DNA of 13,117 nucleotides from Escherichia coli (GTDB lineage Bacteria; Pseudomonadota; Gammaproteobacteria; Enterobacterales; Enterobacteriaceae): assembly GCF_003334815.1 (NCBI RefSeq), contig NZ_QOWO01000058.1; one strand, given 5' to 3'. The translations under genes and the position numbers were made by a program. This document shows, one piece after another, positions 1-13,117 of this stretch. Under the pieces are notes generated by a model that searched no databases, was not told the DNA's origin, and was given only the letters and a program-made list of their open reading frames with translations. Every line of letters starts with the position of its first letter. The stretch's first letter is position 1.

Positions 1-39
1 TGCCTCTGCCGTCTGCATAAGACTATGATGCACAAAAAT

Positions 40-135
40 AACAGGCTATAATGGCCTGAAAAACGGGACAGGATGTGTAATTGTAATACCGTCACACGCG
101 ACGCTATTACAATTACCATCTGGTCAGGGCTTCGC
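40..135 (+). other. oriT: Candidate origin of transfer (oriT) upstream of nikA, with inverted repeats
   Basis: Perfect 12-bp inverted repeat GTAATTGTAATA (77-88) / TATTACAATTAC (105-116), extendable to about 17 bp with one indel (72-88 vs 105-120). Second short palindrome CAGGC-TATAATG-GCCTG (42-58) containing a TATAAT hexamer (47-52). Position immediately 5' of a nikA/nikB relaxosome operon matches the R64 oriT arrangement. Exact nic site not determinable by eye. Confidence 0.6.
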
Positions 136-160
136 CCCGACACCCCGTAAGGAGCCTGAA

Positions 161-493
161 GTGAGTGATAGTGCAGTAAGAAAGAAAAGTGAGGTACGGC
201 AAAAGACAGTTGTCAGAACACTCAGATTCTCTCCTGTTGAGGATGAAACCATCAGGAAAAAAGCTGAAGATTCCGGACTTACTGTATCTGCTTACATCCG
301 AAATGCAGCACTGAATAAGCGAATTAACTCCCGTACAGATGATGCTTTTCTGAAGGAGTTAATGAGACTGGGAAGGATGCAGAAGCATCTGTTTGTTCAG
401 GGAAAAAGAACCGGTGACAAGGAATACGCAGAAGTACTTGTTGCCATAACCGAACTTACAAATACATTGCGTAAACAGTTAATGGAAGGTTGA
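161..493 (+). CDS. nikA: Relaxosome accessory protein NikA (ribbon-helix-helix, oriT-binding), 110 aa
   Basis: GTG start at 161 preceded by SD TAAGGAG (148-154); stop TGA 491-493. 110-aa basic protein directly upstream of the relaxase gene; size and position match NikA of IncI1 R64. Confidence 0.88.
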   Translation: MSDSAVRKKSEVRQKTVVRTLRFSPVEDETIRKKAEDSGLTVSAYIRNAALNKRINSRTDDAFLKELMRLGRMQKHLFVQGKRTGDKEYAEVLVAITELTNTLRKQLMEG

Positions 494-503
494 GGATTCT
501 CCG

Positions 504-3203
504 GTGAATGCAGTCATTCCGAAAAAGAGAAGGGACGGCAAGTCTTCGTTCGAAGACCTGGTGTCCTACGTCTCTGTCCGGGATGACATGACCGATGAGG
601 AACTGAATTTATCTTCTTCTTCGCAGGCTGAACAACCGCACCGGAGCCGCTTCAGTCGTCTTGTTGATTATGCAACACGCCTTCGAAATGAATCATTCGT
701 GGCACTGGTTGATGTCATGAAGGACGGCTGCGAATGGGTTAACTTTTATGGTGTGACCTGTTTTCACAACTGTACATCTCTTGAAACTGCCGCTGCAGAT
801 ATGGAGTACATTGCACAGCAGGCACACTATGCGAAAGATAATACTGATCCTGTTTTTCACTACATTCTTTCCTGGCAGGCCCATGAAAGCCCGCGTCCGG
901 AACAGATTTATGACAGTGTACGCCATACCCTGAAATCTCTCGGGCTGGGTGAACATCAGTATGTCTCTGCCGTGCATACCGATACTGATAACCTGCATGT
1001 TCACGTTGCGGTCAACCGGGTGCATCCGGTTACAGGTTATCTCAATTGCCTTTCATGGAGTCAGGAAAAACTCAGCCGTGCCTGCCGTGAGCTTGAACTG
1101 AAGCATGGTTTTGCTCCGGATAACGGTTGCTGGGTCCATGCGCCGGGAAATCGTATCGTTCGCAAAACTGCCGTTGAACGTGATCGCCAGAACGCTTGGA
1201 CACGCGGAAAAAAACAAACTTTTCGCGAGTATGTTGCGCAGACAGCGGTAGCTGGTTTACGCAGTGAACCTGTACATGACTGGTTATCCCTGCATCGTCG
1301 TCTTGCTGAAGATGGTCTGTACCTGTCTCAGATGGACGGAAAATTTCTGGTGATGGATGGCTGGGATCGCAACAGGGAAGGTGTACAGCTTGACTCGTTT
1401 GGCCCTTCCTGGTGTGCAGAAAAACTCATGAAAAAAATGGGTGACTACACGCCAGTACCAAAAGACATTTTCAGCCAGGTGGAAGCACCAGGACGCTATA
1501 ATCCGGACTTCATTGCAGCTGATGTTCGCCCGGAAAAAATCGCTGAAACAGAAAGTCTGCAGCAGTATGCCTGTCGTCATCTTGGAGAACGTCTGCCGGA
1601 AATGGCACGGGAAGGACGGCTGGAAAACTGCCAGGCTATTCACCGCACACTGGCTGAAGCGGGATTATGGATGCGTGTTCAGCATGGTCACCTGGTTATC
1701 TGTGACGGTTATGATCATAACCAGACTCCCGTTCGTGCTGACAGCGTATGGTCACTGCTGACGCTCGACAATGTGAATCAACTCGATGGTGGCTGGCAGC
1801 CTGTACCAACAGATATTTTCCGCCAGGTTACGCCAACAGAACGCTTCCGTGGTCGTCGTATGGAGAGCTGTCCTGCGACCGATAAAGAATGGCACCGTAT
1901 GCGTACAGGTACGGGGCCGCAGGGGGCTATCAAACGCGAACTGTTTTCTGACAAAGAAAGTCTGTGGGGATACAGCATCAGCCATTGTAGCCCTCAGATT
2001 GAAGAAATGATCACACAGGGTGAGTTTACCTGGCAGCGTTGTCATGAGCTGTTTGCACAACAGGGACTGATGCTACAGAAACAACATCACGGGCTTGTTG
2101 TCGTTGATGCCTTTAATCATGAGCAAACGCCGGTGAAAGCCAGCAGCATTCATCCTGATCTGACACTGGGGCGTGCGGAGCCACAGGCCGGACCTTTTGT
2201 GAGTGCCCCAGCAGATTTGTTTGACAGGGTGCAACCTGAAAATCGCTATAACCCGGAGCTGGCTGTCAGTGACAGGTACGGGGTCAGCAGTAAACGTGAT
2301 CCAATGCTGCGCCGGCAGCGACGTGAAGCCAGGGCTGAGGCCCGTGCTGACCTGCGTGCCCGCTATCTGGCATGGCGTGAACAATGGCGTAAACCAGATC
2401 TGCGTTATGGGGAACGTTGTCGGGAAATTCATCAGGCATGCCGTCTGCGGAAGTCACACATTCGTGCGCAGTACGATGATCCGGCATTACGTAAGCTGCA
2501 TTATCACATTGCAGAAGTTCAGCGAATGCAGGCATTGATCAGGCTGAAAGAAGACATCAGGGATGAGCGACAGAAACTTATTGCTGACGGGAAGTGGTAT
2601 CCACCCTCTTACCGTCAGTGGGTCGAAATTCAGGCTGCTCAGGGAGACAGGGCTGCTGTATCGCAGCTGAGAGGCTGGGATTATCGCGATCGCCGTAAAG
2701 ACAAGTCACGCACAACGACGACAGACCGCTGTGTCGTGCTTTGTGAACCGGGCGGAACGCCGGTATACGGTAATACCGGTGATCTCGAGGCCCGTCTGCA
2801 GAAGAACGGGAGTGTTCGTTTCCGTGACCGTCGGACGGGAGAGTTGGTCTGTACGGATTATGGTGACAGGGTTGTTTTCCGTAATCACCATGACCGCAAT
2901 GCGCTGGCAGATAAACTAGATTTGATTGCACCTGTATTGTTTGAGCGTGATCCCAGAATGGGCTTTGAACCAGAAGGAAACGATGGACAGTTTAATCAGG
3001 TCTTTGCTGAAATGGTGGCATGGTACAATGTGACGGGATTCTCTGAACATGGAAATTACGTTATTACTCGACCGGACGTAGATCAGCACAGGGAAGTGAG
3101 TGAGCGGGGCTATCGCAATTACATGGATAGTAACACTTACAGAGATGGAGCTCAGCCAGTTCAGGATAGTGAGAATCGCTGGGAACCTCCAACACCGGTG
3201 TAA
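504..3203 (+). CDS. nikB: Conjugative relaxase NikB (MOB-P family), 899 aa
   Basis: GTG start at 504 with GAGGA (492-496) upstream; stop TAA 3201-3203. Contains the MOB-P histidine-triad motif HTDTDNLHVHVAVNRVHP (compare RP4 TraI HxDxxxxHxH) and an N-terminal Tyr-containing region (DLVSYVSV). The 899-aa length agrees with R64 NikB. Confidence 0.93.
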   Translation: MNAVIPKKRRDGKSSFEDLVSYVSVRDDMTDEELNLSSSSQAEQPHRSRFSRLVDYATRLRNESFVALVDVMKDGCEWVNFYGVTCFHNCTSLETAAADMEYIAQQAHYAKDNTDPVFHYILSWQAHESPRPEQIYDSVRHTLKSLGLGEHQYVSAVHTDTDNLHVHVAVNRVHPVTGYLNCLSWSQEKLSRACRELELKHGFAPDNGCWVHAPGNRIVRKTAVERDRQNAWTRGKKQTFREYVAQTAVAGLRSEPVHDWLSLHRRLAEDGLYLSQMDGKFLVMDGWDRNREGVQLDSFGPSWCAEKLMKKMGDYTPVPKDIFSQVEAPGRYNPDFIAADVRPEKIAETESLQQYACRHLGERLPEMAREGRLENCQAIHRTLAEAGLWMRVQHGHLVICDGYDHNQTPVRADSVWSLLTLDNVNQLDGGWQPVPTDIFRQVTPTERFRGRRMESCPATDKEWHRMRTGTGPQGAIKRELFSDKESLWGYSISHCSPQIEEMITQGEFTWQRCHELFAQQGLMLQKQHHGLVVVDAFNHEQTPVKASSIHPDLTLGRAEPQAGPFVSAPADLFDRVQPENRYNPELAVSDRYGVSSKRDPMLRRQRREARAEARADLRARYLAWREQWRKPDLRYGERCREIHQACRLRKSHIRAQYDDPALRKLHYHIAEVQRMQALIRLKEDIRDERQKLIADGKWYPPSYRQWVEIQAAQGDRAAVSQLRGWDYRDRRKDKSRTTTTDRCVVLCEPGGTPVYGNTGDLEARLQKNGSVRFRDRRTGELVCTDYGDRVVFRNHHDRNALADKLDLIAPVLFERDPRMGFEPEGNDGQFNQVFAEMVAWYNVTGFSEHGNYVITRPDVDQHREVSERGYRNYMDSNTYRDGAQPVQDSENRWEPPTPV

Positions 3204-3228
3204 AGAATGTTATAAACGGGAGATTATT

Positions 3229-3801
3229 ATGGCTTATGTCGATGATTTTAAAGAAGCAATAATCAGGACTCGGCGGTTACAACTTGCGCAACCCGTTGAT
3301 TTATGTGAGATGCATACTCGCATAATGAACGATAAACGAATCCGCCATTTGGGAGGAATTATACGTCCTGTACTGGATCTGAATTCTGGGTATGAACAAC
3401 TGGTTGCGCGATGTATGCCTGTTCATCTTCAAGCCAGACCTTTGGTTGAAGAATGGCTGGGATGTCCTGTTTATTTTACGTTGGGATGGATTGATGATGG
3501 GACCCCAAAAGGTATGTTCAGGTTTGATGAGGACTTTATTACTGATACATTGAAAAATGGTTATACAGGAGATACTGTCAATCTTCATGCATGGCTAACT
3601 TTACCTAGTATGGAAATTATAGATATCACATTATCAACAACAATTTCTATGTTGCAGGGGCATAAGAATCAGTTAGGCGGTGTTATTATCAAGAGAGCTG
3701 ATGATATTAAAGGCTTCTCATATAAGCCAATGCTTATTGGTGATGAATTCCTGTTAAAATCTGGTATATTGCATAAGTTTACATATCTAGAATTGAACTA
3801 G
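3229..3801 (+). CDS. Hypothetical protein, 190 aa, hydrophilic, no recognised domain
   Basis: ATG at 3229 with GGGAG (3218-3222) 6-7 nt upstream; the longer ORF-track start at 3100 overlaps the nikB 3' end and has no RBS. Stop TAG 3799-3801. AT-rich codon usage like the adjacent microcin island. Convergent with mcpB. Confidence 0.6.
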   Translation: MAYVDDFKEAIIRTRRLQLAQPVDLCEMHTRIMNDKRIRHLGGIIRPVLDLNSGYEQLVARCMPVHLQARPLVEEWLGCPVYFTLGWIDDGTPKGMFRFDEDFITDTLKNGYTGDTVNLHAWLTLPSMEIIDITLSTTISMLQGHKNQLGGVIIKRADDIKGFSYKPMLIGDEFLLKSGILHKFTYLELN

Positions 3802-3850
3802 TGTTTTTTAAATAAACTGGTTTTTTGACGTTCTTATCTCTGTTCAGAAA

Positions 3851-6040
3851 TCACCTCCTGTTGGGATGATTATTTATATTATGAGTTCTGACAGGTCGAT
3901 ATTTTATTTCCGAAAAGTGACCATCTCTCAGATACAGAACTCTGTCTGCGGATGCTATTGTTTCTGGTCGATGAGCTATTAACAGAACAGGAATTCCGAG
4001 TTGGCGTAATGTCTGGCTTATTTCTATTTCACTTTCCACATCAAGATGACTGGTTGCTTCGTCCAGTAATAATAGACTAGGTTTTTTATACAGTGCTCTT
4101 GCCAGTAGAATACGTTGCTTCTGACCACCGGAAAGTCCCCCCCCGGTTTCTCCAAGCAATGTTTGATAGCCCATTGGCATTGCCATAATATCACTGTCTA
4201 TAAGTGCCAGACTTGCGCATTTACGCATGTGTTCATGATCTCTAATTTCGCTAAAAAACATTATATTATCAGCTATAGAACCTTTGAAAAGATAGTCATC
4301 TTGCAATACAGTGCCAATTCGTTGACGAACCTGAAAATAATCAGAATGTGTATGTGGTATGCCAAATGCATTAATTCTTCCTTCACTGGGTGTATGAATC
4401 CCAAGAATAAGCTTTACCAATGTTGATTTGCCACATCCTGATTTACCTGTTATTGCTAATATTTCTCCAGGAAAGAGCATTAGTGACGCGTTATCCAATA
4501 TGGGTTTATCTGCGCCCTTATGGCTAAATGTTATTTTTTCGATAAGTAATGGTGGATGGGTATTATCATATTTATGTTCTCTGTACTGGCTTGCAGATAT
4601 TGTTTCATTATGGTTTGCCCAATGGTGCTGATTCTGGTGACCTTCCTGTGGTGTTAGCACAATATCGGCAAGTCTCTCGTTATAAACATCAAGCATGCGC
4701 CAGGAAAAAAAGTTATCAGTCAGATTGCTTATACTGGATGAAAAACGCATCTGATAGGATAAGTAAGCAACCAACATACCCACGGTAAATGTCCCATCCA
4801 GCACTTCTACTGCACCCTGCCACAAAATAATGGCTGAAACTACACTTTCCGTCAGTGTATGCGTCAGCTCATAGCTCATTTGTAAACGATTCTGGCGTAG
4901 CTGTGTGTTTCTGCGGGTAACGTTGAGGTTCAGCCAGGCCGCTTCTCTGTGAATAGTTACACCGTTGATTCTCAGACTCTGAATGCCGTTAAGGGTTTCG
5001 AGAAAATGCCCCGACTCCTTAGTTCCTGCATCCCAGACATCTTCAACAGATTGCCGTAAAGCCGGATACCACAATGCTCTCAGTGCGCCATATATAATAG
5101 CTGCAATTACTGCGATTAATGTCATTCCTGGACTATACAACAGCATCATGCAAAGAGCAGTCACAATAAGTAGCATATCCAGAATGCCTTCAAGAACCTG
5201 CGTTGTCAGCGCCTGCTGGATTATATCTACTGCTTCAAAACGGGCATTAATACTTCCTTTACTTCGGGCATCGAACCATGCAAGAGGGAGTCTTACAAGA
5301 TGATGGAAAACTCTGGCAGTCCATTGCATGTTAAAATTGACTGATAAACTGATCGTTGCCCATTGTCGTGCCAGGGAGAGTAATAATTGTATGAGTGATA
5401 ACAACAGTAGTGCCACTATAATGACATACAACAGACTTCTGTCTGCTGCAACCAGAACTTCATCAATTACCAGTTGATTAAGAAGTGGACCACCTAAAGC
5501 CAGAATCTCAAGGGCCAGAGCAAAAATAATAATTTTTGTCATTGATGCTAAAAGCCCCGGGGTTTTCCCTGTCAGTTGGCGCAGGTGGATTTTTTTTCTC
5601 TCGTTCCGGGGGGTGAAATCACTGGCTGGAGTTAATTCCAGTGCCACTCCTGTAAAATGCTTACCTGCGTCCAACAGACTTATTGTAATTTTTCCTCTGT
5701 CCGGATCATGGATGTATAACCGGTTTCCCCGAACTTTATGGAGAACGACGAAATGGTTCATATCCCAGTGCAGAATAGATGGAAGATTAAGACACCTCAG
5801 ATCTTCGGGTTCCAGACGAACTGCACGTGATGATAAATGGATGGACGCTGCACATTCGATCAACCTTTGTAGCGTCATTCCCTGAATACCTATATTGAAA
5901 CGTTCCCGTAATGTCGATAAATCTGTTTTCAGTCCATGCCAGCAGGCAATCATAGCCAGACACGCCAGACCGCATTCAGCTGATTCGGTTTGACGGATAA
6001 CGGGTAGTTGTTTCCTTACTTTCCAGTTTATTGATTCCAT
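3851..6040 (-). CDS. mcpB: Microcin ABC exporter with N-terminal C39 double-glycine peptidase domain (CvaB-like)
   Basis: C39 peptidase motifs (QTESAECGLACLAM catalytic Cys, HFVVLH His), a transmembrane domain, Walker A GKSGCGKST, ABC signature LSGGQKQR, Walker B LLLLDEATS, H-loop IAHR. Start chosen at the ATG 6040-6038, which overlaps the upstream gene stop as TAATG and has a GGA-containing SD (AAAGGAAA). The ORF-track start at 6088 adds 16 aa and lacks an SD. N-terminus aligns with CvaB (PVIxQTExAECGLACLAM). Confidence 0.92.
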   Translation of the reverse strand: MESINWKVRKQLPVIRQTESAECGLACLAMIACWHGLKTDLSTLRERFNIGIQGMTLQRLIECAASIHLSSRAVRLEPEDLRCLNLPSILHWDMNHFVVLHKVRGNRLYIHDPDRGKITISLLDAGKHFTGVALELTPASDFTPRNERKKIHLRQLTGKTPGLLASMTKIIIFALALEILALGGPLLNQLVIDEVLVAADRSLLYVIIVALLLLSLIQLLLSLARQWATISLSVNFNMQWTARVFHHLVRLPLAWFDARSKGSINARFEAVDIIQQALTTQVLEGILDMLLIVTALCMMLLYSPGMTLIAVIAAIIYGALRALWYPALRQSVEDVWDAGTKESGHFLETLNGIQSLRINGVTIHREAAWLNLNVTRRNTQLRQNRLQMSYELTHTLTESVVSAIILWQGAVEVLDGTFTVGMLVAYLSYQMRFSSSISNLTDNFFSWRMLDVYNERLADIVLTPQEGHQNQHHWANHNETISASQYREHKYDNTHPPLLIEKITFSHKGADKPILDNASLMLFPGEILAITGKSGCGKSTLVKLILGIHTPSEGRINAFGIPHTHSDYFQVRQRIGTVLQDDYLFKGSIADNIMFFSEIRDHEHMRKCASLALIDSDIMAMPMGYQTLLGETGGGLSGGQKQRILLARALYKKPSLLLLDEATSHLDVESEIEISQTLRQLGIPVLLIAHRPETIASADRVLYLRDGHFSEIKYRPVRTHNINNHPNRR

Positions 6041-7293
6041 TACAGATTTCCTTTCATGCTCCATAGTGGCTCTGTCAGCCATTCCCATAAATGACGAGTA
6101 TCAAGGTTGACGTCTCCTTCCAGAGTCATGCCTGGTCTTAGCGGTTCTTTTTTTCCGTATGCAAATATAAATGTATTTTCAGGCTCAACAATAACGCGAT
6201 AATGCCCTTCGTTTTCTTTCCATGTGACGGGTGAAACTGGTAATAAGTCGGAAGGAGCCAGAGTCGTATGACTGATTTCACGAATTGTGCCGTACTGGAT
6301 ACCAAATTTCTGATAAGGGAAGGCCGAAAACTTCAGAGATACTCGTTGACCTGGTCGGATAAAACCGGCTTTCTGGCTGGTAGCATAAAGCTCAATTTGT
6401 AAATGAGCATTATCGGGAATGAGAGTCATGACCGGTTCTGATGCTTTCACAGACTGCCCCTGTTTGATCAGTACAGCAGCAATAGTCCCGGATACTGGAG
6501 CCCTCAGTGTAAATTTTTCTTGTCCGGCCAGTTCATCCTGTTGTTGTTTTAGCACCTGCAATTGTCTGTCGAGTTCTGCTTTACGGCTTTTCCCCTGAAC
6601 AATAAGATGATTTAGTTCATCTTTGGCTGTGTCCATTGCAGTATGCAACTGGAGAAGCCCCTGACGCTGATCTTCAACGTTTTGTTGAGCGGCAGAAACA
6701 TCAATTTGTTTCTGTTGGAATTCGATATCTGACACATAATGCGTACCAGCCAATTTTTTATAGCGTTCCATGACGGATATAGCCAGTTCTGCCTGACGTT
6801 CAGCAAGCTGAAGTCTTTGTTCTGCACTTCTTATTTGTGGCTCAAGTGATACCATCCTTTGCCGTATGGCTTCCTGTTGTTGACTATTATCTCGCGACTC
6901 AAAGGATTGCTGGGAGGCCAGCATGATAGACTGGGTTTTCAGGGAAATACTCATCGTTGCTAATGTGCCAGTTCCGTTACCGTTATAATGTTCTCCACTT
7001 ATATGATAGAGTTGTGTCCCTGCAGTTACGTGTTCTCCTTCGGATACAGTCAGTTGTGTTACATATCCTGCATATTGAGGAATTATTTTTACCAGTCCTG
7101 ATGAGGGCATGACGATACCTGTAAGATGCGCTTTCCTTGTATAGCTACCGTAATAGATGAATACAGTCAGACTTAACATAATGAATAATGTAACTGTTGC
7201 ACATACGGATAGGCTAAATGATGTTGGTAAAATAATGTCACCATATTCAGTGTCATTATGATGTTCTATTGCTTCACTTCTGAATATATTCAT
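6040..7293 (-). CDS. mcpD: HlyD/CvaA-family membrane fusion protein for microcin export
   Basis: N-terminus MNIFRSEAIEHH aligns with CvaA MFRQDALENRK, followed by a single TM helix and a long coiled-coil Q/E-rich periplasmic region. Start taken as ATG 7293-7291; the ORF-track start at 7329 is a TTG with no SD. Stop TAA 6042-6040 overlaps the mcpB start. Confidence 0.88.
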   Translation of the reverse strand: MNIFRSEAIEHHNDTEYGDIILPTSFSLSVCATVTLFIMLSLTVFIYYGSYTRKAHLTGIVMPSSGLVKIIPQYAGYVTQLTVSEGEHVTAGTQLYHISGEHYNGNGTGTLATMSISLKTQSIMLASQQSFESRDNSQQQEAIRQRMVSLEPQIRSAEQRLQLAERQAELAISVMERYKKLAGTHYVSDIEFQQKQIDVSAAQQNVEDQRQGLLQLHTAMDTAKDELNHLIVQGKSRKAELDRQLQVLKQQQDELAGQEKFTLRAPVSGTIAAVLIKQGQSVKASEPVMTLIPDNAHLQIELYATSQKAGFIRPGQRVSLKFSAFPYQKFGIQYGTIREISHTTLAPSDLLPVSPVTWKENEGHYRVIVEPENTFIFAYGKKEPLRPGMTLEGDVNLDTRHLWEWLTEPLWSMKGNL

Positions 7294-7395
7294 TCTTTTT
7301 AATACAATAACTAACCTTTCTGTCAACAAGAGGGGTTGGTTGAATAATATTGATATTTGATATACATCTTACCTGTGTGATGTTAAAGTTTTATA

Positions 7396-8031
7396 CTATA
7401 ATATATTTAACAATATAACAAAGCCGTTTATCCCCGCATGTAACAGCATTGGATAGAAAATCCCCTTACTGCAAATTCTTATATTCAACAATAACATTGA
7501 CATAATAAACAGAATAATTTGATCAGCTACATTATAATACTGCGGATGCATCAGGCAGAAAAATAAAGATGTACACACGCAGGGGGTGAATAATTCTTTT
7601 TTATAAGTCGCACATAGAAGGCCGAATAAACATGTTCGGTAAACAATTTCTTCATAATACGGAACTATCAGGACCAGTATAAATATTTCAATCCAATTAA
7701 GTGAAGTTGATTCACTATTGTTTAAATTGTCTCTATAAGCAAAAATAAGCAGTTGCATGAGAGCAATTACAGCAAATGATATTACTAATAGCTTTAATGT
7801 TTTCGCATTTGTCTTTATGGTGATTTTACAACCTGGTATTCTTCTTAAGTAAAAAATATAAAATGAAGTTGATATTAAAATTTCAGTAATAAAGACAAAG
7901 GAAAATGCCAGGTCCAAACCAATATATTGTATGGTGAATGCTGGTGTGAATATCACAACTGTTGATATAACAACAAGTAGAAGAAACGCTATCGCATTAT
8001 CTTTGCTGTATTTATATATGTTATCATTCAT
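7396..8031 (-). CDS. mcpA: CPBP-family (CAAX protease / Abi-like) intramembrane metalloprotease homologue, 211 aa
   Basis: Polytopic membrane protein with the three CPBP motifs: EExxxR (EEIVYR), FxxxH (FFCLMH) and HxxxN (HAGIN). Very AT-rich. ATG at 8031-8029 lies 4 nt after the mcpI stop (TAG 8038-8036). Confidence 0.85.
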   Translation of the reverse strand: MNDNIYKYSKDNAIAFLLLVVISTVVIFTPAFTIQYIGLDLAFSFVFITEILISTSFYIFYLRRIPGCKITIKTNAKTLKLLVISFAVIALMQLLIFAYRDNLNNSESTSLNWIEIFILVLIVPYYEEIVYRTCLFGLLCATYKKELFTPCVCTSLFFCLMHPQYYNVADQIILFIMSMLLLNIRICSKGIFYPMLLHAGINGFVILLNIL

Positions 8032-8035
8032 AATG

Positions 8036-8236
8036 CTATTTCGCGGAGATTGTTCTTATTTTTTCTATGATATAGTCCATGAATCTTGCTGTGGAAAAAA
8101 GAGTGATCAGCATGACTACAATCTTTGAAAACTCGGAAGGGAGTGAAAACCAGTATAAATCAATAACAGAGGAGCCACTCAATAGCGCAAATCCCAGTAA
8201 CAAACCACATATAAAGGAAAGTAATTTAATAAACAT
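8036..8236 (-). CDS. mcpI: Small two-helix membrane protein, probable microcin immunity protein (66 aa)
   Basis: Small hydrophobic ORF immediately downstream of the precursor gene, the usual position of class II microcin immunity genes. Start chosen at ATG 8236-8234 (MFIKLL...) because GGAGG lies 8-9 nt upstream; the ORF-track start at 8251 would add 5 aa (MEGAT). Confidence 0.7.
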   Translation of the reverse strand: MFIKLLSFICGLLLGFALLSGSSVIDLYWFSLPSEFSKIVVMLITLFSTARFMDYIIEKIRTISAK

Positions 8237-8260
8237 AGTAGCGCCCTCCATTATATCTAT

Positions 8261-8623
8261 TTATCGGTTACATGTTCCGCCAACATTATTACCTGAACAA
8301 CTACTGGAACTTCCTCTGTTACCACATCCATTTCCACTACCATGATCTGAGAGACATTGACCAACAACGGCTCCACCAATGGTACCTCTTGCCATTCCTA
8401 TGGGACCTCCTTTGATCGCACCACCAATCATTCCACTAAATACAGCGTTAGCGCATTTTACAGTGCTTGGATCACTATAAATATGAGTTGGTGCGTTTCG
8501 ACCCAGTGAGTTACGAGCCCCACTGGAACGCTCATTACGGGGGCCACCTTCAAAGTTGCTGTTTGCGTTTCCTCCGCTGACAAGCGTTATCTCATCTAAA
8601 GTTAATTCTCTTATACCTGCCAT
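8261..8623 (-). CDS. mcpM: Class II microcin precursor with double-glycine leader (120 aa), matches microcin PDI McpM from memory
   Basis: N-terminal leader MAGIRELTLDEITLVSGG has the ExLxxxExxxVSGG double-glycine pattern ending at G17-G18, with a second GA site at G35/A36. Gly-rich mature region with GxxxG-like repeats (GGAIKGGPIGMARGTIGGAVVG) and Cys at 57, 90, 100, 109, 118. SD GGGGAAA upstream of ATG 8623-8621. First gene of an operon ending in a C39-ABC exporter. Confidence 0.88.
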   Translation of the reverse strand: MAGIRELTLDEITLVSGGNANSNFEGGPRNERSSGARNSLGRNAPTHIYSDPSTVKCANAVFSGMIGGAIKGGPIGMARGTIGGAVVGQCLSDHGSGNGCGNRGSSSSCSGNNVGGTCNR

Positions 8624-8780
8624 ATCATATTTCCCCTATTGGTTGTTTGTTATTTTGTGCGTTCAAGATAGCCAATAACAAAAATGTAATGAAAGTGAAA
8701 TTGTGTGATTAAATGTAAATATGTGAAAATATTTGTATGTTCTTGAGGTTGTGTGATTACAAAAATATCATCGTGTGAAG
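8624..8780 (-). promoter_or_regulatory. AT-rich promoter/operator region of the microcin operon
   Basis: About 160 bp AT-rich leader between the trbC terminator and the mcpM start. Read on the - strand it contains five TTYAC-type half-sites phased at about 10 bp (TTTCAC, TTTACA, aaTCAC, TTTCAC, aTTACA; + coordinates about 8685-8728). On the + strand TTGTGTGATTA occurs twice (8701-8711, 8749-8759). Exact -35/-10 not assigned. Confidence 0.5.
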
Positions 8781-8808
8781 ATATAAAACCGTGCCAGGGC
8801 TGGCACGG
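8781..8808 (-). terminator. Rho-independent terminator downstream of trbC
   Basis: Perfect 9-bp stem CCGTGCCAG (8789-8797) / CTGGCACGG (8800-8808) with a 2-nt loop; on the - strand it is followed by TTTTATAT (8788-8781). Lies 8 nt after the trbC stop codon (8816-8818). Confidence 0.7.
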
Positions 8809-8815
8809 CCTCTGT

Positions 8816-11107
8816 TCAGTACATTCCGTCCCAGTCCGGACGGTTGGTTTTTTTATGATGAAACCCGTTTACAGGACGCCCTGTCAGGTGGTTATTGTCC
8901 TGTGGAAGCGTTAACAGGTTTATACCTGCTCTTTCTGCTCTCACTGATATCTGATTTTCCTCTTTTGTTTCAGGTAGTTCTGGTCTGTTCAGCGTGATAT
9001 AGCGAATTCGTCGCTCTTCCCGTGTGGTCGTTTTAAGCGTATTCACCGCTGTTTCCCACAAGGCACTTTCACGTGCGTTGATATCCGTGTCGTACTCTTC
9101 CAGCATTGCCATAGCCGCCTGACGTCCTGCAATGCGTTGCTGGAATGTATCCACGATCGTGTGCGGCTCTGTGCGAATTTTTCGTCTTTTTCTGGAGGGT
9201 TTTGCAGTCAGGACGCCAATGATGGCACTGACATTTTCCGGTGACGGTATTCGACGTTGAGTAGTACGGGGAACAAGACGGCGGAGACGGTCCAGGCGTG
9301 GCGCATCCACGCTGATATACCTGTTTATAACAACGGGATCGCTGCTGCAGCTTTTCTCATTGTCAGGGATGAAGAATGATGCTGATGGTACGGTTTCTCC
9401 CCGGAAAATAGAAAAGAACTCGCCAGGATGAAGTTCAATCAACTCCTGAACATCTATCTTACTTTCCATCAGGATGCTGATTTGTGGGCTGTCAATCCAT
9501 GATTCACCAAATATGCCGTCCTGACGCTGCAGGTTGTTCATCCTCGCCCTGGCTTCTTCACCGGCGGCGCTTTTCAGCGTTCTGGCCGTACTGCCCTCGC
9601 TGACAATCCTGCCGGCAAATTTTGTCCCCGTGTTCTGCATCAGTGTTGCAGTATTCGTGGCTGTTGTCTGTCCTTCTATACGTTCCTGGTCCTGTGCCAT
9701 CAAAATCAGAGCAAAATCCAGTGAACGCACCTGAGTGGCTTCCACAGCAATACGGTCTGTATAGTATGCCCCCACTTCATCAAGGAAACACAGATAAGGG
9801 AAACGCCCCTTATATTTTTTGACTTCCAGTGCATCGGAATCAGTTCCTTCGAGGCGGTAGCCCAAATCACGGGCGAGAATCATACTTTTCTGGGTGATAA
9901 ACATTCGTCCCAGAGCAGACGTTGTATGCGCTGATGTATCCAGAGCGGGGATCATTACCATCAGAATCCTGTCGCTGTGAATGCTGTCACGGATATCGAT
10001 ATCACCGGAATCTTCAGCAAAAATATCCCCGAATGCTTCCGTGAATGTGCTGAAAGTTTCAGAAAACTGCCCGGAGAGATAAGCATGTTGTTTTCTGGGT
10101 TCTTCCGTCCAGGCTGATGGTGTCCTGACCAGCGACAGGTCGAAACCGGGAACGTCCTGAAGGTAGTTACGTAACGGTGCGATAGCTTCTTCCGGCCACT
10201 GATCATCGAGGCCACGACAGTAAAGTTTGGCCATCCCTTCGAGAGTCATATGTTCACGGAGCATCTGCAGCGACATTGTTTTGCCTTCGCGCACACACCA
10301 GAATTTAGTACCAAATACCAGTGCCTTGTTCATGGCAATGGCCCGGGACTGCCACTCGCCCCCCTGGACGTTCTGGGGCAACATTGACTGCATTGTCTCC
10401 GCTGTGAATGCCTCAGTGCTGTAACAGAAGGGATTCCAGGTATTTGACTGAGGTCGTGTTTTTTCACCACTCAGAATGATTTCACTGCGGGATTTTCCTC
10501 CGTTCATGAAGTTGATGACTTCCACATCGTCTTCACGGCCAAAGCGTCTGGCCAGATACCAGATCGTTCTTGCCGTATCATTCTGTGCCTTGCCATCGAC
10601 AAGGGTGAATCCTCTTGCCCAGCAAAGCGGGTTAATCGCCCAGGCAAAGATGGTTTCCGTTTTACCACCACCGGTGGTGGCGAAAAACATTATATGGCGG
10701 GTCAGATCGTCCATACTCAGCCACAACTCCCGACCTATATCCCTGACGCGTTGATAACCAACATAAAATATGCCGCTGGCCGGTGACTCCAGGATGACCT
10801 CATACTGAAACAGAGTTGGCCAGAAGCTGAAAAGGCTTCTTTTAATCATTCTGTCCTGTGACGGGTCAGCACATTCCAGCGTCATGGGCATACGAAGAGG
10901 GCAGCGCCATCGCTGCAGACTAAATACCAGCATCGTTATCAGTGTGAACAACAGACATGCCGGTAATGCAAGTGGCCAGATAAAACTGGCCACAAGACTT
11001 GCCACCAGGCAAAAGCCATAGATATTGAGACTCTGGAGTGCATTCCAGACAGGATTTCCCCAGGCTGTACGGTGTAAAAGCTCGGGGTTAACGCGATGTT
11101 CACTCAT
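8816..11107 (-). CDS. trbC: Type IVB coupling-protein-like ATPase TrbC (DotL/IcmO homologue), 763 aa
   Basis: N-terminal TM helices followed by an ATPase domain with P-loop FFATTGGGKTE. ATG 11107-11105 overlaps the trbB 3' end by 8 nt. Position after trbB and size agree with R64 TrbC. Confidence 0.88.
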   Translation of the reverse strand: MSEHRVNPELLHRTAWGNPVWNALQSLNIYGFCLVASLVASFIWPLALPACLLFTLITMLVFSLQRWRCPLRMPMTLECADPSQDRMIKRSLFSFWPTLFQYEVILESPASGIFYVGYQRVRDIGRELWLSMDDLTRHIMFFATTGGGKTETIFAWAINPLCWARGFTLVDGKAQNDTARTIWYLARRFGREDDVEVINFMNGGKSRSEIILSGEKTRPQSNTWNPFCYSTEAFTAETMQSMLPQNVQGGEWQSRAIAMNKALVFGTKFWCVREGKTMSLQMLREHMTLEGMAKLYCRGLDDQWPEEAIAPLRNYLQDVPGFDLSLVRTPSAWTEEPRKQHAYLSGQFSETFSTFTEAFGDIFAEDSGDIDIRDSIHSDRILMVMIPALDTSAHTTSALGRMFITQKSMILARDLGYRLEGTDSDALEVKKYKGRFPYLCFLDEVGAYYTDRIAVEATQVRSLDFALILMAQDQERIEGQTTATNTATLMQNTGTKFAGRIVSEGSTARTLKSAAGEEARARMNNLQRQDGIFGESWIDSPQISILMESKIDVQELIELHPGEFFSIFRGETVPSASFFIPDNEKSCSSDPVVINRYISVDAPRLDRLRRLVPRTTQRRIPSPENVSAIIGVLTAKPSRKRRKIRTEPHTIVDTFQQRIAGRQAAMAMLEEYDTDINARESALWETAVNTLKTTTREERRIRYITLNRPELPETKEENQISVRAERAGINLLTLPQDNNHLTGRPVNGFHHKKTNRPDWDGMY

Positions 11108-12170
11108 GGCCAGACTCGCTGTCGGTGGTTTTCAGGAATAAATTAAGCGTGCCAGTTTCCTGCAGAATTCCAGTAGGCAGATGCCAGCCCGTGTCGGACA
11201 GCACCCATGGGGTACCGGCAAATCCGAACTTACGGAAGGCGACATTGTTAACATCAATCGCAGCTCTGGCTGCTTTCAGGCATGTTTCATCTGCAGGCGT
11301 TGTTTCTTCTGATGGCGTCATCATTCCGTTATCTGCGGAATACAGTCGGTGCCAGCCGGCAGCACGTTTCTGAGCATCTTTTTCACACAGCAGTGGTGCC
11401 ACACGGTCGGTGGATTCCTCTCCACCAATAACTGAAACCGGGTAGATAACGACATTGAAGTCGCTGGCCAGGCGTTTTAAGGCCGGCTCCAGAAGTCTGC
11501 AGTTAGGACAGGCAGGATCGAGAAATGCGAACAGGGTTCGTTCATGACCGGATGACAGGTTGATGGTAAACATGCCCCGATCGGCGTTCCGCTTCAGAAC
11601 AGTAGCCAGATTATGTCGCGCAGCTGCGGCTTCCGGATTTTTGCTTGTGATTGTTTTCTCCGGTACCTGGACGTCTTTTTTCGGGGGAACCGGGAGTTGA
11701 ATGCCTTCATTTAATGGCACAGTGTGATTCAGGTGAGGGGGAAGCAGTCGTGGCTCACCTGCTGTCTGTACTGCTTCAGGCGTTGTATCATCCCAGAATA
11801 CACGATCAACATAGCGGAACAGAGAGAAGCCAATCGTTGCCATTACGAACAGCACAACGCTGGCGATTATGCCACGGAACAAAGGTGTTCTGCTGAAGCG
11901 GCGTTCCATCAGATATTCAAGGCGCAGGCAGGAATCAATAGCTGTAAGTATCTGGTCAGCGTTATGCTCCTGTTTATCAATCAGGAGGGTTTCTTTGTTA
12001 CGGGTGCCCATGGCGTCAAAGGCTATATGAATCAGTTGATTATTTCGTGTTACCAGCCCTGACAGGGCATCCCGTGGAAGGACGGCAATAATTTCTGTCC
12101 TGCCATCCGGCCAGATTGCCTGCACGGAAATATGTTTTGCAATACGTGTTGCAAAGTACTCGATTGTCAT
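11100..12170 (-). CDS. trbB: Thioredoxin-fold protein TrbB (CxxC = CPNC) with N-terminal domain and single TM helix, 356 aa
   Basis: ATG 12170-12168 with SD GGAGAA 8 nt upstream; central hydrophobic helix (LFRGIIASVVLFVMATIGFSLF); C-terminal domain with CPNC active-site motif typical of DsbC/thioredoxin-like conjugation proteins. Confidence 0.82.
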   Translation of the reverse strand: MTIEYFATRIAKHISVQAIWPDGRTEIIAVLPRDALSGLVTRNNQLIHIAFDAMGTRNKETLLIDKQEHNADQILTAIDSCLRLEYLMERRFSRTPLFRGIIASVVLFVMATIGFSLFRYVDRVFWDDTTPEAVQTAGEPRLLPPHLNHTVPLNEGIQLPVPPKKDVQVPEKTITSKNPEAAAARHNLATVLKRNADRGMFTINLSSGHERTLFAFLDPACPNCRLLEPALKRLASDFNVVIYPVSVIGGEESTDRVAPLLCEKDAQKRAAGWHRLYSADNGMMTPSEETTPADETCLKAARAAIDVNNVAFRKFGFAGTPWVLSDTGWHLPTGILQETGTLNLFLKTTDSESGHE

Positions 12171-12188
12171 TTTCAGTTCTCCGGATAA

Positions 12189-12875
12189 TCAGAATTCGTT
12201 GTCTGTAGCAGGTGTGCGGGGCAGGATGTCGTCGGTGAGGGACCAGTTGGTCAGGATGCGGCGTTTCCGGTCGCGATCTGGTTGTGGTTCATCCCAGATA
12301 AGACCGAGACTGAGCATATCCCGCCGTAAGCCTTCCACCGCTTCATCAACACAGGGTTCAGGGCAGGGAAGGCCAAAACGCATGGCTTCGGCCTCTGCAC
12401 GTGCAACGGCCACCACGCCAGCGCCTTCAATAAATCCTTTCGTGGTATTGGCGCGGTGTAATGCATAAAACAGCGTCCTGTCCACGCCTTTCAGCCAAAT
12501 CCAGTTGGGGGGCGTAAGCCGCAGGTCATGTGCATACAGCCAGACCAGCCCACTGCGGACGTAGCGATGTTGTTTCAGCCATTGCTGTGCTCCGTTGCTT
12601 TTAATCACTCTCTGGAAAGCTGATTTGGCCAGTGAATAAACAGGGGTACAGAATTTCCCACTGTCCCGTTTGCTTTTAATTCTGCATGAGAGGTTCAGTG
12701 TATCCATGAGCTTTAATGCTGCCTTACGATCATCCAGGAAATACTGAAGACCAAATATGGCAAAGAGCGCTTTTTCATGTGGTGCCATGTCTTTCCAGGA
12801 CGTTAAAGGTTTACCTAACTGGGCCATGAAACATCGTCTTGCAGCTGCAACATCGAGCTGCATATTGGTGATGAG
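12189..12875 (-). pseudogene. trbA: 3' portion of trbA (DotM/IcmP-like T4BSS component), probably truncated by IS insertion
   Basis: The 259-codon ORF 12189-12968 reads through the IS left terminus; its first 31 codons (12876-12968) are IS sequence. The remaining 228 codons encode a hydrophilic domain with no TM helices, consistent with the C-terminal cytoplasmic part of a DotM-like protein. Gene order trbA-trbB-trbC matches R64. Confidence 0.55.
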
Positions 12876-13117
12876 TGAACCGCCCCGGGAATCCTGGAGA
12901 CTAAACTTCCTGAGAAAGAGGTAAACAGGATGACTAAAAATACTCGTTTTTCCCCCGAAGTCCGTCAACGGGCAGTCCGTATGGTTCTGGAAAGTCAGAG
13001 CGAATATGACTCACAATGGGCGACAATTTGTTCCATTGCTCCAAAGATTGGCTGTACGCCGGAGACTCTGCGTGTCTGGGTTCGCCAGCATGAGCGGGAT
13101 ACCGGGGGCGGTGATGG
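12876..13117 (+). mobile_element. IS3-family insertion sequence (IS629/IS1203-like), left end; continues beyond window
   Basis: Terminus begins 5'-TGAACCGCCCCGGGAATCCTGGAG (12876-) with the TG start typical of IS3-family inverted repeats, followed 54 bp later by the orfA start. OrfA N-terminus MTKNTRFSPEVRQRAVRMVLESQ...TLRVWVRQHERDTGGGDG matches the IS629/IS1203 OrfA helix-turn-helix protein from memory. Confidence 0.85.
12930..13117 (+). CDS. IS3-family transposase OrfA (partial, 5' end only)
   Basis: ATG at 12930 preceded by AGAGG (12917-12921); open to the end of the window (62 codons). HTH-type N-terminal domain; the Gly-rich GGGDG stretch precedes the expected frameshift region. Confidence 0.85.
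   Translation, partial: MTKNTRFSPEVRQRAVRMVLESQSEYDSQWATICSIAPKIGCTPETLRVWVRQHERDTGGGD

Follow-up and report, generated by a model that had tools for sequence, protein, structure and literature searches.

An IS629/IS1203-group element at a break in trbA of an IncI1-type plasmid with a microcin PDI-like cluster

Organization of the nikA to trbA region

The window analysed here is the whole of a 13,117 nt stretch of Escherichia coli DNA, in which the open reading frames (ORFs) are arranged in the order nikA-nikB-(microcin cluster)-trbC-trbB-trbA', the last being a 3' remnant. The genes nikA (161-493, + strand, 110 aa) and nikB (504-3203, + strand, 899 aa) are full-length ORFs whose products have the lengths of NikA and NikB in other IncI1 contigs, and the second is found as nikB in relatives. 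The DNA-processing (relaxosome) genes nikA and nikB therefore appear to be retained. On the opposite strand, trbC (8816..11107) is intact and encodes a DotL/IcmO-like coupling ATPase of 763 aa that matches NF041447 (TrbC_conju) at 1043 bits, over the cut-off for that model. The adjoining trbB (11100..12170, - strand) is also intact, encodes 356 aa and is annotated as TrbB in relatives. There are only 18 nt between the stop codon of trbA and the start of trbB, which has its own GGAG, and the start of trbC shares 8 nt with the end of trbB. The overlap suggests that trbB and trbC are translationally coupled, and trbA, trbB and trbC are probably expressed as one transcript.

There is a class IIa microcin cluster (3851-8623) between nikB and trbC, two genes that are adjacent in ordinary IncI1 plasmids. 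It consists of an mcpB-like gene (3851-6088), an mcpD-like gene (6040-7329), a gene for a CPBP protease (7396-8031) and a gene for a 120-aa precursor (8261-8623), all on the - strand. The 120-aa product has every residue landmark published for McpM (microcin PDI), namely G17G18, G26G27, G35A36, C57 and C90. The cluster lies within window 3000-9000, of which 58 PLSDB plasmids hold 80% or more. The interval that separates nikB from the microcin exporter also contains an ORF without annotation that may be as long as 233 codons (3100-3801, + strand); in the Logan contig ERR10124339_191 gene callers report, at the corresponding position, a 190-aa product with no Pfam match.

The trbA remnant and the insertion element

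The trbA reading frame occupies 12189..12875 on the - strand. These 687 nt comprise 228 codons and a TGA stop, and all 228 residues are identical, without gaps, to residues 175-402 of WP_000121273.1, the IncI1 TrbA encoded by plasmid NZ_CP024481.1. The intact IncI1 gene is 1209 bp long and encodes 402 aa, so that only the 3' 687 bp are present in the window; codons 1-174 are absent from it, and the break lies between codons 174 and 175. The initial annotation had placed an insertion inside trbA rather than beside it and had described the 228 remaining codons as having neither a start nor a membrane segment. Alignment with the intact gene, which the annotation had proposed as a means of finding the breakpoint, bears out both points, because a 1209-bp gene cannot fit into 12189-12875, and hydropathy agrees on the second. 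In the remnant the highest 19-residue Kyte-Doolittle mean is 0.86, in comparison with 2.83 in the missing N-terminal part, where the only strongly hydrophobic stretch of TrbA falls in 19-residue windows centred on residues 20-39. No membrane segment was seen by hydropathy and no native start codon is present in the trbA remnant of the window. The trbA sequence of the window is best regarded as a gene fragment rather than as a functional member of the TrbA family, since codons 1-174, the membrane region and the native start are all missing.

The domain PF23127 (DotM_C) spans TrbA residues 185-358 (E=2e-49), so the whole of it lies in the remnant, and it is also recorded for a 224-aa remnant product. 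The break is 10 residues ahead of this domain. As predicted from the protein sequence, then, the insertion is placed so that it parts the hydrophobic membrane region from a complete cytoplasmic domain. Intact TrbA matches the solved structures of Legionella DotM/IcmP (6EXE and others) at E=2e-8 and the NCBIfam model NF033890 (DotM/IcmP) at 3e-18. The latter match reaches 75 bits and is far under the 230-bit equivalog cut-off, so TrbA is only a distant homologue of DotM/IcmP and not an equivalog; a DotM-like role may be assumed on this basis. TrbA has the same layout as the Legionella proteins (PDB 6EXE, 6SZ9), in which the membrane region is N-terminal and the DotM_C cytoplasmic domain comes after it, but it acts in DNA conjugation whereas they act in effector secretion. 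PMC6112013 gives TrbA and TrbC as the counterparts of DotM and DotL, respectively, in the type IVB coupling complex. The initial annotation had referred to a type IVB coupling complex and, given the DotM_C domain, the structure matches and the description of TrbC as DotL-like in PMC6112013, that label is fair. In comparison with trbA of the IncI1 plasmids R64, ColIb-P9 and pESBL, the remnant agrees at 100% identity with the last 228 residues of the TrbA allele that is common among them, and the order trbA-trbB-trbC beside nikB is kept. Unlike in those plasmids, the gene in the window is without codons 1-174 (the hydrophobic membrane region), its promoter and its start.

From 12876 to the end of the window (12876..13117, + strand) the sequence is that of an IS3-family element of the IS629/IS1203 group. 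The window reaches 242 nt into the element and its end cuts off the remainder, so that the far side of the element is outside the window. The initial annotation had put the IS3-family left end at about 12876, and sequence identity fixes the first IS base at exactly that position. Plasmid RCS85_pI (NZ_LT985321.1; contig L003, 10787-12096) has a complete 1310-bp element whose left end matches these 242 nt at 100% identity; it is annotated there as an IS3 family transposase with one CDS of 1214 nt starting 54 nt in. The 242 nt are also 98.8% identical to chromosomal copies annotated as IS629 family, and the left end is 94% identical to IS1203 of plasmid p15ODAR; relatives of the element are annotated as IS629 or IS1203 family. 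Copies with 100% identity to the 1310-bp variant are found in many E. coli genomes, and RefSeq copies bear a frameshift pseudoknot annotation. The left inverted repeat TGAACCGCCCCGGGAATCCTGGAGA lies at 12876-12900 (+ strand). The right end, as seen in RCS85_pI and in contig QOWO01000079.1 (see below), reads TGAACCGCCCCGGGTTTCCTGGAGA as its reverse complement and is identical to the left end at 23 of 25 positions, so the element has TG...CA ends with imperfect terminal inverted repeats.

The 5' part of the transposase gene orfA (12930..13117, + strand) begins with an ATG at 12930, preceded by a ribosome-binding region, and runs for 62 codons (MTKNTRFSPEVRQRAVRMV...) on the strand opposite trbA. 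In a query of the first 108 transposase residues, the IS3 transposase model NF033516 matches OrfA residues 10-98 (E=1e-11, 45 bits); the 160-bit cut-off of this model applies to the whole protein and the query was OrfA alone, which is why the score falls short.

The trbA frame continues from the break into the element. There is a mechanical ORF at 12189..12968 (- strand) of 259 codons, 31 of which are IS-derived (12876..12968, - strand) and lead to a TTG start at 12966-12968, with an in-frame stop 15 codons further upstream. This agrees with the initial annotation, in which the frame entered the IS by 31 codons. No Shine-Dalgarno sequence was found ahead of the TTG or ahead of the first internal ATG (TrbA M179, 12861-12863). 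The extension is best read as chance read-through, with no sign that the start is used. Exact-product look-ups of the 259-aa hybrid product of the window, and of a 273-aa partial product in which the contig was supposed to end 137 nt into the IS, gave no record.

The reciprocal junction and the origin of the break

If the element entered trbA with a 3-bp duplication, the reciprocal product would consist of TrbA residues 1-175 followed by a TGA stop from the IS end. An exact-sequence look-up of this predicted 175-aa product led to QOWO01000079.1 (contig L017; GCA_003334815.1), in which trbA codons 1-175 (nt 1-525) are joined to the IS right end. The junction in this contig reads ...CATACTCTC followed by TGAACCGCCCCGGGTTTCC, or over a longer stretch ...GAGCAGCATACTCTC followed by TGAACCGCCCCGGGTTTCCTGGAGAG..., and in the window, in the trbA sense, the IS left end is followed directly by CTCATCACC. 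Both junctions have the same orientation and the same CTC triplet (GAG on the + strand). In the window this triplet is at 12873..12875, where GAG corresponds to CTC (codon L175) on the trbA strand; it would be one copy of a 3-bp target-site duplication. Thus the 5' trbA fragment and target duplication for which the initial annotation had suggested a search are found in QOWO01000079.1. The 3755 nt of this contig that are not IS sequence are 100% identical to RCS85_pI and lead from an older IS copy in the opposite orientation through an IS66 remnant and pnd/hok to trbA. We infer that the window and QOWO01000079.1 record one event, which the 3-bp duplication takes for granted. Because the reciprocal junctions agree in orientation and in the CTC triplet, trbA is likely to have been disrupted by a simple IS insertion with a 3-bp target duplication.

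By this mechanism a 1310-bp element of the IS629/IS1203 group would have transposed into trbA of an IncI1-type plasmid carrying microcin PDI. Its entry point would be between codons 174 and 175, its transposase gene would run against trbA, and the 3-bp target CTC (GAG on the + strand) would have been duplicated. The 5' piece would encode TrbA 1-175 with the hydrophobic membrane region and end at a TGA that the IS end contributes with its first three bases. The 3' piece would be promoterless and encode TrbA 175-402 with the complete DotM_C cytoplasmic domain.

The same join in the window could in principle be left by an IS-bounded deletion or rearrangement, in which the IS of the window is, or has recombined with, a copy like those that RCS85_pI holds 3 or 6.4 kb past trbA. 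In that case the 5' half of trbA, pnd/hok and neighbouring DNA would be gone, and trbA would be dead through a larger and irreversible loss. RCS85_pI does have two further identical copies at these distances, and the left end of the one that shares the orientation is 6.4 kb past the break point, so recombination or an IS-adjacent deletion would be mechanically easy; IS629 has been linked to genomic deletions, and the IS-excision enhancer (IEE) is described as promoting IS629 excision (PMC9943667). The far side of the IS also lies beyond the window. However, a public draft contig has the exact reciprocal junction with the matching 3-bp duplication on an identical backbone, and in that contig, QOWO01000079.1, the new and the older IS copies still have the pnd/hok and IS66 segment between them, so that a deletion is unlikely. 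A chimeric assembly join between a trbA contig and a repeated IS might also be considered, given that the window ends within a multi-copy repeat and that the exact junction is present in no complete record. Such an artefact is so improbable as to be nearly negligible, because the join falls exactly at the terminal TG of the inverted repeat and because an independent public contig has the complementary junction with the correct 3-bp duplication, which chimeras do not produce.

Another possibility concerns function rather than origin. A truncated TrbA, either DotM_C alone or the 259-codon IS-TrbA fusion, might be made from IS signals and keep the coupling complex working, alone or with the membrane fragment 1-175. 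The break falls in the linker and leaves each half as a whole domain, with DotM_C beginning 10 residues further on, and there is an open frame with the TTG and the internal ATG (M179). IS3-family elements have outward-facing promoter elements, and these are located at the right end. The remnant abuts the left end, from which its transcription would be antisense to orfA. Moreover, both starts lack a Shine-Dalgarno sequence ahead of them, no precedent was found for a functional TrbA without a membrane region, and a scan, although a weak one, detected no promoter-like site on the - strand at 11000-13117 or in the complete element. The initial annotation had offered expression of a truncated TrbA as an alternative; with both starts lacking a Shine-Dalgarno sequence and the remnant facing the IS left end, it finds no support here, and we consider it very improbable. 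The consensus promoter scan of the relevant strand found no site upstream of intact trbA either and is uninformative both ways, so that trbB/trbC or the remnant may have an internal promoter.

Insertions in trbA among related plasmids and their probable effect on transfer

RCS85_pI and NZ_CP024481.1 match window 1-12875 at approximately 100% and have intact trbA genes; trbA is also intact in GCA_003334015.1, a draft assembly from a neighbouring accession with a match of 99.98%. Since the nearest relatives (approximately 100%) keep an intact trbA, the insertion is, judged from these comparisons, recent, with the backbone otherwise unchanged. Among 1,455 plasmids with trbA in PLSDB (about 1,450), 1,442 carry it as a single stretch of at least 80% of the gene, and trbA is disrupted or partial in approximately 1% of the trbA carriers. 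The remnant is not a chance resemblance, because trbA is contiguous in these 1,442 plasmids. The exact junction was absent from a whole-record search of PLSDB, where the one full-coverage match, p15ODAR, has an insertion at a different site. It was likewise missing among 5,426 complete RefSeq E. coli genomes, and it did not turn up when genome_contigs, viral_contigs and metagenome_contigs were scanned for exact 35-mers of the junction.

The region beyond trbA is variable in these plasmids. In RCS85_pI (7900-16800) the two identical IS copies are in opposite orientation and flank a DUF6882 gene; past them are a lutABC-like lactate-utilisation operon, an L-lactate permease and then IS66 genes. 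The lactate genes represent metabolic cargo in the usual trbA-excA variable region. The + strand IS copy of RCS85_pI has a 4-bp duplication, GGAG. Some IncI1 plasmids (contigs L018, 263-1354, and L029, 688-1467) have a gene in the trbA-pnd intergenic region that matches PF26125 (AcrVA2-like), and in pESBL the gene at the trbA-pnd position carries the annotation of a fertility-inhibition protein; the lineage of the window has the IS66 remnant there.

Look-ups of TrbA 179-402 and TrbA 1-175 returned 23 and 22 contigs, respectively, most of which begin or end right at these positions. A contig-break hot spot, arising by assembly or recombination at codons 175/179, was considered for them, but the contig ends run on as native trbA with offsets of 0, 1 and 2 nt. 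The hot spot was rejected for this reason and because an exact-product look-up selects such ends; in these look-ups, made at codons 175 and 179, the ends look like random breaks. One of the Logan contigs (L007, 1-23) has a Nextera transposase adapter, AGATGTGTATAAGAGACAG, fused to trbA and left untrimmed in the public assembly.

Two other insertions of IS629-group elements in trbA were found. In p15ODAR (NZ_MG904995.1, 5040-6420), a plasmid from pig E. coli in Switzerland, IS1203 is inserted near codon 45 with a 3-bp target-site duplication (TGA). As in the window, the element belongs to the IS629/IS1203 group, is in the same orientation and has a 3-bp duplication, and trbB, trbC and nikB are intact beside it. 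The two differ in position (about codon 45 versus 175) and in the IS variant (94% over the left end), and p15ODAR, unlike the window, has no microcin cluster between nikB and trbC. The Logan contig ERR10124339_191 (1-40) has the same IS left end in trbA in the same orientation, 13 bp downstream of the window junction. Its junction runs from the IS into TGCAGCTCG, with the A of the IS end fused to the TG of codon M179, and its backbone is a microcin PDI backbone 99.36% identical to the window; the other junction of this insertion was not found. There are thus three independent IS629-group insertions in trbA (the window, ERR10124339_191 and p15ODAR), all in the same orientation. This may reflect target preference, selection against conjugation or chance. 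It might be supposed that trbA serves these plasmids as a switch by which conjugation is turned off recurrently, under selection and reversibly, although we regard this as quite improbable. If it were true, precise excision in hosts with IEE would restore transfer, and conjugation would be phase variable, with the cost of transfer spared and the microcin kept.

The need for TrbA in conjugation is well documented. TrbA, TrbB and TrbC each score 1.00 as 'required for transfer' in the TnSeq study of pESBL (PMC4288162), deletion of trbA abolishes conjugation of pCTX-M3 (PMC6112013), and trbA and trbC are restated in PMC6112013 to be indispensable in R64. The initial annotation had held that trbA and trbC are needed for R64-type conjugation, and PMC6112013 and PMC4288162 agree. 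The TnSeq score for trbA could be due in part to polarity on trbC. Because TrbA is required in R64, pESBL and pCTX-M3, loss of self-transfer is expected. TrbA would act as the DotM/IcmP-like partner of the DotL-like ATPase TrbC, and by analogy with these plasmids the trbA allele is most likely null and the plasmid has probably lost the ability to transfer itself. Additionally, the 18-nt spacing of trbA and trbB and the overlap of trbB with trbC would expose both downstream genes to polarity, and the 1.3 kb of antisense IS upstream probably lowers their expression as well.

The plasmid need not be confined to its host. Since nikA and nikB are full-length, mobilisation by a co-resident IncI1 helper is conceivable. 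PMC9397093 and PMC9943667 describe precise excision of IS3-family elements in hosts with an IS-excision enhancer, by which known gene knockouts caused by simple insertion of such elements can be reversed. Precise excision of the element would restore trbA, and the knockout need not be permanent because IS3-family elements can excise. With nikA and nikB full-length and excision possible, the proposal in the initial annotation that the microcin locus is 'locked' into its host lineage is speculative and stands as one possibility.

Taken together, a known IS group, a known conjugation gene and textbook insertional inactivation make this an ordinary, already known kind of event, and it adds nothing new on IS3-family elements, TrbA/DotM or IncI1 conjugation. 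Its importance is mainly practical. Mobility typing from sequence would class such a plasmid as 'conjugative' all the same, despite the broken transfer gene, and p15ODAR is indeed still typed as 'conjugative' in PLSDB/MOB-suite. The spread of microcin PDI from this host would need a helper plasmid, excision of the IS or clonal expansion.
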